NCBI GenBank assembly: GCA_044229975.1
Contig: JBGARZ010000003.1
Coordinates: 621,809-685,808 of the forward strand
Direction of reading: 5' to 3'
DNA from: Polyangiales bacterium
GTDB lineage: Bacteria > Myxococcota_A > Polyangia > Polyangiales > Ga0077539
DNA: 64,000 bases
Part shown: positions 42,728-44,432 of the stretch, one piece after another
Layout of the letters: each line of letters starts with the position of its first letter
Position numbering within the stretch: the stretch's first letter is position 1
The notes under the pieces: model-generated
What the model saw: the letters and a program-made list of their open reading frames with translations, nothing else
Databases searched by the model: none
What the model was told of the DNA's origin: nothing
Translations under genes and position numbers: made by a program

Positions 42728-44080
42728 TCAGGCTTCCAGCTTGAGCTGTACGAGCAGCGGCCAGTGCCGCGACAGCGATCGCGCGAAGTAGCTGCACTGC
42801 GCCAACGCGTTGACGGCGTCGTCCTCGGGCGACGTGCCGTGCCGCGACGCCGTGGCGTACGCCGTGCGCTGCGCGACGAGCGAGCCCAGCTCCGGGGCCG
42901 CGGCTCCGTCGGCCGTGGCCGTGGTCGGCGTCGCCCGCAGCGCCGCGGCGCGACCGGGCGGCAGCGCGGCGGCGAGCAGGTCGACGACCCGCAGCTCCTG
43001 CACCACCGGCGGCGGCGTCACGAGGTGATGAACAACCGCCAGCCCATCACCCAGGTGACCAGGCAGACGGTCGGCGCCCTGCGGGTGCGCGTGCGGCTTG
43101 ATGGCCTCCCAGTGCATCTGCCGATCTTGCAGATGGATGTCCGCCGGGTTGACGGCGGCGAAGCTGGCGAGGAGACCGTCGTGGCGCTCGGTGGTCACCT
43201 TCCAGAAGTCGTCGCCCAGCACGGTGCCGCACGCGCTCGGTCGGATGAACTCCGCGTCGAACTCCTCCTCCAGCTCGCGCAGCCCCTCCGCCGCGTCGCC
43301 GGGCGCGGAGACGAACAGCAGCGCCGAGTCGGGCATCGGGGCCGTCGGCTCGCGCTCCTCCGGGGTGGCGGCCACGCGCAGCGACTCCCACGGGCGCTCT
43401 GGCGTCGTGAGCCCGAGCGAGGCCACCACGCACACCGGCTCGGCGCGGTAGGCCGGGGCGGAGAAGGTCGCGGCGATGAGCGAGCCGGTCACCCCGGCGG
43501 ACTCCATCACCGGCGCCTCGATCACGTCCGTCTTCTGGAGCGCGAAACCCTTGCCCGACGCGTACAGAAACGCCACCGTGGTCCAGCGGTCGTAGAGGGT
43601 GGCGCCGGTCTTCCGGTCGCGGGGCAGCACCAGCTGCCAGCCGCTACCACCGTCGATGGACTGGAGCTTCGCGAGGATGCGTCGCACCTCGGCCACCCCG
43701 GAGTCCGCGGGCGCGTCTTCGAGCGCGACGTGCGCCGTGGGCCCCGACCCCCGCCGGACAGGCACCTTCTGCACGTTGCGGGTGATGCCTGCCAGCACGA
43801 CGACGTGGACGTCGAGCGACGCGATGAGGTGCGCGTACGCGTCGATGGCAAACTGCGGCCGCACCGTCGGGGTAAACAGTCCGCCGCCCAGCTCGGAGAC
43901 GTGCCAGAAGACCACCCGCGCGGGCGGCTTGGAGCGGACCTCGTCCTGGGCGTCGCGCGGACGGGGTGCGAAGGGACACGGAGCGACCGCGGGGGTGCCG
44001 CGACGTGCGGGCGCATCGGCGGCCGCGAGCAGCGCATCGAGACGCTCGTTGGGCGGAGCGCCGGGCAGGGGAATGGGCAT
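42728..44080 (-). CDS. Degenerate EEP (endonuclease/exonuclease/phosphatase)-fold protein
   Basis: RVVFWHV, DVHVVVLAGI, VAFLY and terminal SRHWPLLVQL map onto EEP WN, D.v.LQE, yaflY and SDH.P. GGGAGGG SD. Confidence 0.5.
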   Translation of the reverse strand: MPIPLPGAPPNERLDALLAAADAPARRGTPAVAPCPFAPRPRDAQDEVRSKPPARVVFWHVSELGGGLFTPTVRPQFAIDAYAHLIASLDVHVVVLAGITRNVQKVPVRRGSGPTAHVALEDAPADSGVAEVRRILAKLQSIDGGSGWQLVLPRDRKTGATLYDRWTTVAFLYASGKGFALQKTDVIEAPVMESAGVTGSLIAATFSAPAYRAEPVCVVASLGLTTPERPWESLRVAATPEEREPTAPMPDSALLFVSAPGDAAEGLRELEEEFDAEFIRPSACGTVLGDDFWKVTTERHDGLLASFAAVNPADIHLQDRQMHWEAIKPHAHPQGADRLPGHLGDGLAVVHHLVTPPPVVQELRVVDLLAAALPPGRAAALRATPTTATADGAAAPELGSLVAQRTAYATASRHGTSPEDDAVNALAQCSYFARSLSRHWPLLVQLKLEA

Positions 44081-44081
44081 C

Positions 44082-44432
44082 TCAGCCCTCCCGGTCGAGG
44101 CGTCGCAGGGCGGCCCGCCAGACCTTGCGGACGCGCAGCGTGGCGTTGGTGATGGTCGGGTCGCGCATGCCCTGGTCGATCCACGCGACGTCGGGTCGCT
44201 GCCAGTCGGCGCCGAAGATCATCGCGAGGTCCATGAGTCGTAGCTGGTCGTCGGTCTGACCGACGCCGTACTCGCCGCAGCGTCGAACGACCTCGGCGAC
44301 GGCGGCCTTGAGCTTCACCGCACCGAGCGCCGAGGCCGCGCCGGCGTGGACGGTCTCGGCGTGCGTGAGCAGGAGCTTGTGACTGACGACCGCGGAGAGG
44401 GTGTGAATCTGCGCGGTTCGAATCTTCAGCAT
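44082..44432 (-). CDS. Small helical protein resembling those associated with DUF4123 T6SS adaptor loci
   Basis: MLKIRTAQ...LG...L...V......YGV...DQLRLMDL..IFGADW....W pattern. Alternative start at 44465. Confidence 0.55.
   Translation of the reverse strand: MLKIRTAQIHTLSAVVSHKLLLTHAETVHAGAASALGAVKLKAAVAEVVRRCGEYGVGQTDDQLRLMDLAMIFGADWQRPDVAWIDQGMRDPTITNATLRVRKVWRAALRRLDREG

Follow-up and report, generated by a model that had tools for sequence, protein, structure and literature searches.

What is the function of a compact three-gene cassette that stands, with no recognizable secretion gene beside it, in a stretch of 64,000 nucleotides (the window) from contig JBGARZ010000003.1 of a Polyangiales bacterium? 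The cassette encodes a predicted small helical protein (P0001, the helper), a protein with a predicted but catalytically degenerate EEP fold (P0002, the pseudo-EEP) and a large protein with a nucleotidyltransferase domain (P0003). The analysis described here makes a link to type VI secretion (T6SS) very probable, and it leans, by a narrower measure of confidence, toward a full mechanism in which the cassette is an orphan T6SS binary effector module and the pseudo-EEP would act as carrier of a nucleotidyltransferase toxin. The features of the cassette are as follows.

44082–44432, minus strand: gene of the 116-aa protein P0001; if translation begins at the upstream ATG at 44465, the length is 127 aa
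44087–44092, minus strand: ribosome-binding site (GGGAGG) of the 450-aa gene, located within the 3′ end of the 116-aa gene and 6 nt 5′ of the ATG
42728–44080, minus strand: gene of the 450-aa protein P0002 (pseudo-EEP; proposed secreted carrier or co-effector)
42721–42726, minus strand: ribosome-binding site (GGGAGG) of the 1195-aa gene, 7 nt 5′ of the ATG
39126–42713, minus strand: gene of the 1195-aa protein P0003 (tandem nucleotidyltransferase and C-terminal OTU fold; proposed toxin)

The genes are separated by 1 nt (44081) and 14 nt (42714–42727), so that the co-oriented, close-packed arrangement with Shine–Dalgarno motifs described in an earlier, sequence-only reading of this DNA was confirmed down to the coordinates. 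That reading had also remarked on the lack of a VgrG or PAAR gene beside the module, and profiles for VgrG, PAAR and DUF4123 built in this analysis indeed gave zero matches in the 64-kb window. Searches of Pfam, NCBIfam and PDB sequences with all three proteins, the helper included, likewise returned zero matches. Homologues were found in, among named sources, a Deltaproteobacteria metagenome-assembled genome, Myxococcus hansupus and Pyxidicoccus. The host genome itself measures 10.0 Mb with approximately 71% GC.

To what extent do the three genes belong together? The P0003 homologue set comprised 43 sequences, together with 42 GTDB loci taken with flanks of at most 10 kb, many of them on short contigs. 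With P0002 as query, 13 close homologues were recovered together with 45 representatives, and 38 full-length sequences were aligned for a site census. The helper and pseudo-EEP lie upstream of the large gene in four of the 42 loci, and two further cassettes (L056 and L131) were found via the pseudo-EEP. The order helper, pseudo-EEP, large gene is kept in all seven loci with a full-length pseudo-EEP, which represent about five independent lineages and at least four phyla, and in no case did a pseudo-EEP occur unaccompanied by the large gene (7/7). Co-occurrence, which the sequence-only reading had proposed as a test, was thus borne out by these loci, and the small gene was found to belong with T6SS loci carrying a split DUF4123 adaptor.

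Assignment of the 116-aa protein to a co-TecT-like family of T6SS co-adaptors, putatively as a stand-alone counterpart of the DUF4123 C-lobe, is supported by profile comparison. A search for Tox-REase-5 over 301 genomes yielded three cassettes against which the helper profile was tested, all of which (3/3) show the layout PAAR, short DUF4123, small gene, toxin, downstream gene. The helper profile matched the small slot gene over its full length in two of the three (22.7 and 15.0 bits, with 10.0 as the best of 2000 shuffles), and hhalign of the helper family versus a Tox-REase-5 slot gene gave 91.6% (E 8e-7) when alignment A5 was used and 40% for A4, which is narrower. The toxins of these cassettes likewise bear an early CxxCP motif. 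The slot between short DUF4123 and Tox-REase-5 toxin is presumably that of co-TecT, an equation that we draw partly from the gene order in Pseudomonas aeruginosa. As described in the available text of PMC11582642, co-TecT is the C-lobe of a split DUF4123 adaptor; it has a gene of its own and binds the effector. Although tblastn found no paralogues of the cassette proteins in the host genome, a profile search of the same genome detected four further helper paralogues, one of which lies directly 3′ of vgrG and faces PAAR–DUF4123 genes. Among 29 other helper loci (a set from which L118, a weak match that is a pseudouridine synthase, and L104, on a 1.8-kb contig, were excluded), nine have VgrG, PAAR or DUF4123 in the nearby open reading frames (ORFs) scanned. 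A DUF4123 gene directly precedes the helper in five loci (L112, L113 and L114, where it follows VgrG, and L098 and L120), and VgrG does so in one. The sequence-only likening of this protein to small proteins of DUF4123/VgrG effector loci therefore holds, since some of its relatives directly follow VgrG and/or short DUF4123 and the family profile matches the co-TecT-slot gene in two of three cases. No helper–DUF4123 fusion was found in the loci collected here, and a plasmid collection held no match to P0002 or to a helper paralogue. Two more orphan helpers, one a tandem duplicate, were seen in the host (L069:7121-10100 and L070:9371-12413); the large proteins encoded next to them, 728 and 884 aa long, come after the helper, both have an early Cys motif and are candidate orphan T6SS effectors.

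The 450-aa protein is predicted to adopt the four-layer alpha/beta sandwich of the EEP/DNase I fold. Its AlphaFold2 (AF2) model (pLDDT 83.7) aligned in VIA with EEPD1 at Z 18.4 (rmsd 3.3 over 230 residues) and with DNase1L3 at Z 17.9; the top 38 VIA rows (Z of at least 10.2) are all EEP-fold by title, and the next row drops to 5.9. Foldseek matched the model to EEP enzymes at E 9e-7, and the protein atlas agrees. This is the fold that the sequence-only reading, which had noted an EEP-like motif order, had named as a test of its proposal. Motifs are found as WHV (59–61), LAGI (96–99) and SRHWP (437–441), in which H60, G98 and R438 align to the N, E and D sites of four intact relatives (P0117, P0120, P0121 and P0122). 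From these relatives to P0002, LEV became LAGI, FHAP became VASL, DLN became SAP, FDR became GDG with the Asp kept, and SDH became SRH with the His kept. The residues of P0002 that bear on its chemistry and on its proposed loading are:

43307–43309, minus strand: S258, invariant Ser at the DxN Asp site (38/38 rows, with alignment to P0117/P0120/P0121/P0122)
42764–42766, minus strand: H439, retained EEP catalytic His (H in 35/38 rows, one gap)
43046–43048, minus strand: D345, retained partner of H439 (D in 37/38 rows)
43973–43993, minus strand: PAVAPCP motif, residues 30–36, proposed loading signal (C35 in 33/38 rows)

Across the 38 aligned rows, the metal Glu site of motif II holds G in 36, D in two and E in none, as compared to Glu in 4/4 aligned intact relatives; the motif-III His (positions 220–221) is absent from every row. 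Because no row keeps the Glu or the motif-III His and every row has Ser at the DxN Asp site, the family is, as judged from the alignment, pseudo-EEP throughout as regards metal-dependent hydrolysis. The earlier description of H, G and R at the N, E and D sites is correct for P0002 itself, but only the change from E to G extends to the family: site 60 is N in 19 rows, H in 17 and R in two, and site 438 retains the Asp of SDH in just 12/38. E131, W293 and H332 are invariant and D319 nearly so. The nearest relatives of the pseudo-EEP are intact EEP or EEP-OTU proteins, and the weak tail of the P0002 profile search includes intact EEP proteins, several of them fused to an OTU domain. Members P0102, P0103 and P0105 carry approximately 200 extra N-terminal residues; P0102 gives a weak CarboxypepD_reg match (E 7e-5), resembling the beta-sandwich of the middle genes in L132–L135.

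How would a protein of this kind be loaded? An early Cys motif is present in the ORF after the helper in 23/30 cases versus 460/5596 host ORFs, a count that excludes six helper matches without a following ATG ORF, uses a motif defined after inspection of the data and includes kin that are not independent. AVAPCP also starts proteins unrelated to the pseudo-EEP that follow the same helper family in L133–L135. The layout there is a helper, then a protein with AVAPCP, a beta-sandwich and a peptidoglycan (PG)-binding domain, which has no catalytic Pfam domain, then a large EEP-OTU protein. This is the same three-part layout as in the cassette, with an apparently noncatalytic middle gene, and would be a precedent for carriers in that slot. 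In the text available of two papers, PG_binding_1 proteins are proposed among the domains that assist effector loading (PMC10673891) and secreted T6SS co-effectors are established (PMC8728615). The large protein of L132–L135 was observed to be an EEP-OTU-DUF7831 protein of approximately 1650 aa with intact N-terminal EEP motifs; DUF4123 is adjacent in L133, and the gene is fragmented in L132. As for docking partners, the host genome contains 15 VgrG matches, three DUF4123 matches and TssC, as well as a PAAR protein with the tail Q..L..AA..G.PFC..C. Short DUF4123 and PAAR/VgrG genes occur at a distance of 290 kb on the contig of the cassette, and also on a second contig. A complex prediction of pseudo-EEP (alignment A3) with helper (A5) scored 0.26 and 0.08 versus a mark of 0.32 with controls unfolded, and was counted neither way.

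The 1195-aa protein (AF2 model, pLDDT 77.3) divides into the following recognizable domains:

40899–41372, minus strand: nucleotidyltransferase domain 1, approximately residues 448–605, with KGGRA...D471-W-D473...E594/D597 intact
39771–40337, minus strand: nucleotidyltransferase domain 2, residues 793–981, degenerate (VIA Z 11.1 to MenT1, rmsd 3.6 over 147)
39147–39671, minus strand: OTU-fold domain, residues 1015–1189 (VIA Z 9.5 to a Wolbachia OTU, rmsd 3.4 over 125)

The motif hG[GS]...DxD...D/E of domain 1 is complete, with G454, G455, D471, D473, E594 and D597, as well as KGGRA, invariant in 43/43 homologues; the fold was assigned by this motif together with Foldseek matches, given without residue ranges, to polymerase-beta-type enzymes. 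In domain 2 the first acidic site is Arg in 41/43. Residues 1015–1189 also match a second OTU domain (Z 9.2). In P0003, Ser1029 takes the place of the catalytic Cys, whereas His1185 is retained; among six close homologues the Cys site is S in four, N in one and C in one. The C terminus appears swappable across the 43 homologues, being papain-like C39 in 5/43, C70 in 3/43, USP in 1/43, an OTU fold in P0003, or absent. The top Foldseek match was Megavirus poly(A) synthase Mg561, which is weak (E 5.2e-3, prob 1.0, TMt 0.25, 9% identity), and phmmer of P0003 versus PDB gave no sequence-level match to the viral poly(A) polymerase. The first 200 residues of P0003 are free of Cys. Derivation of its OTU domain from the EEP-OTU relatives was considered and is unsupported (hhalign 2%). 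The invariant active site, the swappable C-terminal peptidases, a patchy spread over at least six phyla and residence beside reb and XaxAB-like genes make P0003 probably a toxin. Residues 196–220 in its N-terminal part form a highly conserved Q.D...HPLQ...N..QR segment that, with H378, is possibly a further functional site. The C-terminal region of some other large proteins (L008, L011 and L005) has a QGHG...DFC domain, with QDHG in L041 and DTC in L035, that is reminiscent of clan CD (caspase-like) peptidases.

New here is the observation that the large-gene family mostly occurs without helper or pseudo-EEP, next to reb or reb-associated genes (13 of the 42 loci) or XaxA/XaxB-like genes (five, with L020 confirmed at E 4e-125 and 3e-42). 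Ten more loci show only a gene pair termed F4, and ten show none of these contexts. The RebB assignment comes from a Pfam match in L009 and was carried over to other loci by BLAST clustering; in L014 the reb genes are on the other strand. The reb link may partly be in print, because a preprint on R-body toxins lists, in its accessible text, "a nucleotidyltransferase" near reb genes (PMC13733733). In a FastTree phylogeny of 40 rows, from which five loci with a fragmented large gene were excluded, contexts are clustered yet change at least five times (branches are long and the rooting is untested), and one pseudo-EEP-linked and one reb-linked large protein are sisters with support of 100. TssC was found in 5/5 cassette genomes versus 1/5 genomes of the reb context. 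The F4 pair, two conserved genes of 420–480 aa, precedes the nucleotidyltransferase in 14 loci, among them L020 (L020:5307-8036), and in four loci it comes after XaxA/XaxB-like genes; its reading by eye as pore formers was dropped, Pfam and PDB sequence searches having given nothing. Further genes of a toxin-like kind lie between reb genes and the nucleotidyltransferase, in one locus each: a GH25 lysozyme (L016:7607-9019) and an HNH-like ORF recognized by eye (L033:8268-9737).

The mechanism that we favor is as follows. The helper would serve as a co-adaptor gripping the N-terminal Cys motif of the pseudo-EEP, and their complex would dock in trans on a short DUF4123 protein of the host and on a VgrG, or a PAAR with a tail, from another locus. 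The pseudo-EEP would be the secreted carrier of the 1195-aa nucleotidyltransferase. Once that enzyme is delivered, its domain 1 may attach nucleotides to RNA or protein of the target cell, which is most probably eukaryotic, for example a protist. No immunity-like gene is common to the 42 large-gene loci, as would be expected if the target is a eukaryote; according to PMC3482391, peptidase toxins of this kind are likely directed at eukaryotes when no immunity gene goes with them. What we infer in this scheme is that the proteins are secreted, that they are physically linked as described and that the large protein is toxic. The L018 cassette has a short DUF4123 two genes downstream. Several observations weigh against the scheme. 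That locus is the only one of seven with a T6SS gene nearby, four of the seven were found via the large gene, and two pairs among them are close kin. In the third Tox-REase-5 cassette the small gene of the slot is not matched by the helper profile, and 20/29 other helper loci show no VgrG, PAAR or DUF4123 in the ORFs scanned. The presence of TssC is not specific to the cassette, because it is also found in 4/5 genomes of the F4/pore-former context, and the Cys motif count carries the limits given above. Finally, the retained S258, D345 and H439, together with a conserved QD..MHWE..H insert, mean that the pseudo-EEP could have an activity of its own.

Taken further, that last point gives an account, which we regard as unlikely, in which the EEP-fold protein is itself the effector through metal-independent chemistry (e.g., a Ser258-His439-Asp345 triad) and the large gene encodes a second, separately loaded effector. 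Conservation of the three residues in 38, 35 and 37 of the 38 rows, the invariant or near-invariant E131, W293, H332 and D319, the position of the pseudo-EEP in the usual effector slot after the helper, and its kinship with intact EEP-OTU proteins of helper loci would all suit such an enzyme. It is opposed by the lack of a His/Glu/Asp metal site in any row and by the constant company of the large gene, which, lacking an early Cys motif, would need another loading route. An undelivered pseudo-EEP, serving as immunity protein or intracellular chaperone that silences the nucleotidyltransferase in the producer, would fit the tight translational coupling across the 14-nt gap and the lack of another candidate immunity gene, the next ORF in the window being convergent and the seven loci having no common downstream gene. 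Immunity genes of T6SS usually lie downstream of the effector, whereas the pseudo-EEP gene is upstream of the large gene; its product also bears the N-terminal motif of helper cargo, and 38/42 large-gene loci do without a pseudo-EEP and without a common substitute. We hold this role to be quite improbable.

A different kind of explanation denies secretion altogether, making the cassette a cytoplasmic conflict module (defense or addiction) or the decaying passenger of an old insertion. The distance from any vgrG or PAAR gene, absence from 30/30 other genomes of the family, the OTU domain without its Cys and the occurrence of MenT-type folds in toxin–antitoxin enzymes are in keeping with it. Three intact frames with ribosome-binding sites, an invariant domain 1, full-length helper homology and a gene order kept across at least four phyla are not, and we give it little credence. 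The module reading proposed from sequence alone, namely a chaperone with an inactive enzyme (immunity, scaffold or co-effector) and a multidomain toxin, is thus largely supported by the conserved order, the EEP fold and the helper homology; among its options immunity fits worst, and a co-effector or carrier fits best.

How the cassette reached this genome is indicated by a 73-nt repeat, the four copies of which all lie within the window:

35866–35938, plus strand: repeat copy 1, the 3′ end of a resident 216-aa gene (35276–35926); left junction of an 8.7-kb insertion
36999–37071: repeat copy 2
38872–38944, plus strand: repeat copy 3, which bounds the three-gene module on the left
44578–44650, plus strand: repeat copy 4, a copy of the 3′ end of gene 35276–35926; right junction of the insertion

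The cassette is one module of inserted DNA, because in two of five congeners (G1029 and G1030) the site is empty, with flanks that abut and a single repeat copy; its place between copies 3 and 4 is as the sequence-only reading had it. Two other congeners carry unrelated inserts (8.6 and 23.5 kb) with nuo genes, EF-G and radical SAM, and FG-GAP and LRR genes, and one has the flanks on different contigs. The 3′ end of gene 35276–35926 is an insertion hotspot. An integron attC reading of the repeat was dropped because the repeat is a gene 3′ end with an empty site in congeners. Pfam detected no integrase among the island ORFs scanned and none in the congeners' inserts; the L056 cassette has a tyrosine integrase gene 2 kb upstream. 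A pseudo-EEP was found in 1/31 host-family genomes, that of the host itself, and in full length in 2/201 genomes of another order. Between copies 2 and 3 lies a 295-aa ORF (37973–38860, plus strand) without a Pfam match and with a 69% DNA match in G1027, which may resemble Rpn/YhgA-like PD-(D/E)XK proteins. Elsewhere in the window are a tandem array (23490–23782; 42-nt unit, copies 64–95% identical over 84 nt) and an 856-aa Cys-rich ORF (5725–8295, minus strand) with seven copies of a 156-nt repeat and no Pfam match at E 1e-4.

The literature searched, which covered few subscription journals, gave no description of the cassette or of a pseudo-EEP co-effector. Closest in adaptor logic is PAAR4-TecT-co-TecT-TseT of P. 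aeruginosa (PMC11582642, in its available text), where a small helical co-adaptor also precedes the cargo. The cassette itself, in contrast, has no PAAR, DUF4123 or immunity gene, it places a degenerate enzyme after the helper and then a second, larger enzyme, and its likeness runs via the Tox-REase-5 slot genes, not PA3906 itself. The binary module VP1388/VP1390, insofar as it is described in the accessible part of PMC8728615, likewise combines a proposed nontoxic co-effector with a toxic effector in one operon, but through a MIX-protein co-effector and a required immunity gene, VP1389, as compared to a pseudo-EEP, a co-TecT-like helper and no immunity gene. The cassette falls outside the MIX type, the pseudo-EEP having no Pfam or NCBIfam match and an EEP fold instead. 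In operation it would resemble a binary effector module served by a TecT/co-TecT adaptor, yet it lies outside the MIX type and outside the active EEP/OTU enzymes. With EEP/DNase I proteins (EEPD1 and DNase1L3, P0117, P0120–P0123 and those of L133–L135), the pseudo-EEP shares the fold, the motif order, a WN..ELGG start and a terminal D...SxH; it differs from the intact EEP and EEP-OTU proteins in lacking the metal Glu, the motif-III His, the DxN Asp/Asn and a fused OTU domain. P0003 is reminiscent of the giant-virus poly(A) polymerases Mg561/R341 (PMC4402537, available text) and of MenT1 in having two nucleotidyltransferase subdomains, the second with noncanonical catalytic residues, although its match to Mg561 is weak and it has extra domains (N-terminal and helical-bundle) as well as a C-terminal peptidase that varies. 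Relatives of P0003 inside reb operons recall the R-body-delivered toxins (CEDRs) of PMC13733733, whereas the cassette has no reb genes and the nucleotidyltransferase of that preprint is known by mention only.

A broader possibility, which we offer as doubtful, is that P0003 represents a widespread and undescribed family of poly(A)-polymerase-like tandem nucleotidyltransferase toxins used against eukaryotes and switched repeatedly among three unrelated devices, namely R-bodies, XaxAB-type pore formers and T6SS, with an EEP nuclease effector turned, for the T6SS route, into a dead carrier of which only the loading signal was kept. If the proposed reading is true, the pseudo-EEP would define a new class of T6SS co-effector, a pseudoenzyme derived from a former toxin and operating under a co-TecT-like helper. 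The helper family and the early Cys motif would then form a searchable pair of markers for orphan effectors missed by Pfam and NCBIfam. Occurrence of the same enzyme in reb operons would supply a definite family of candidate cargo for R-bodies, a matter that has long been open, and one toxin spread across three delivery systems would allow a direct test of how cargo and delivery device are matched.

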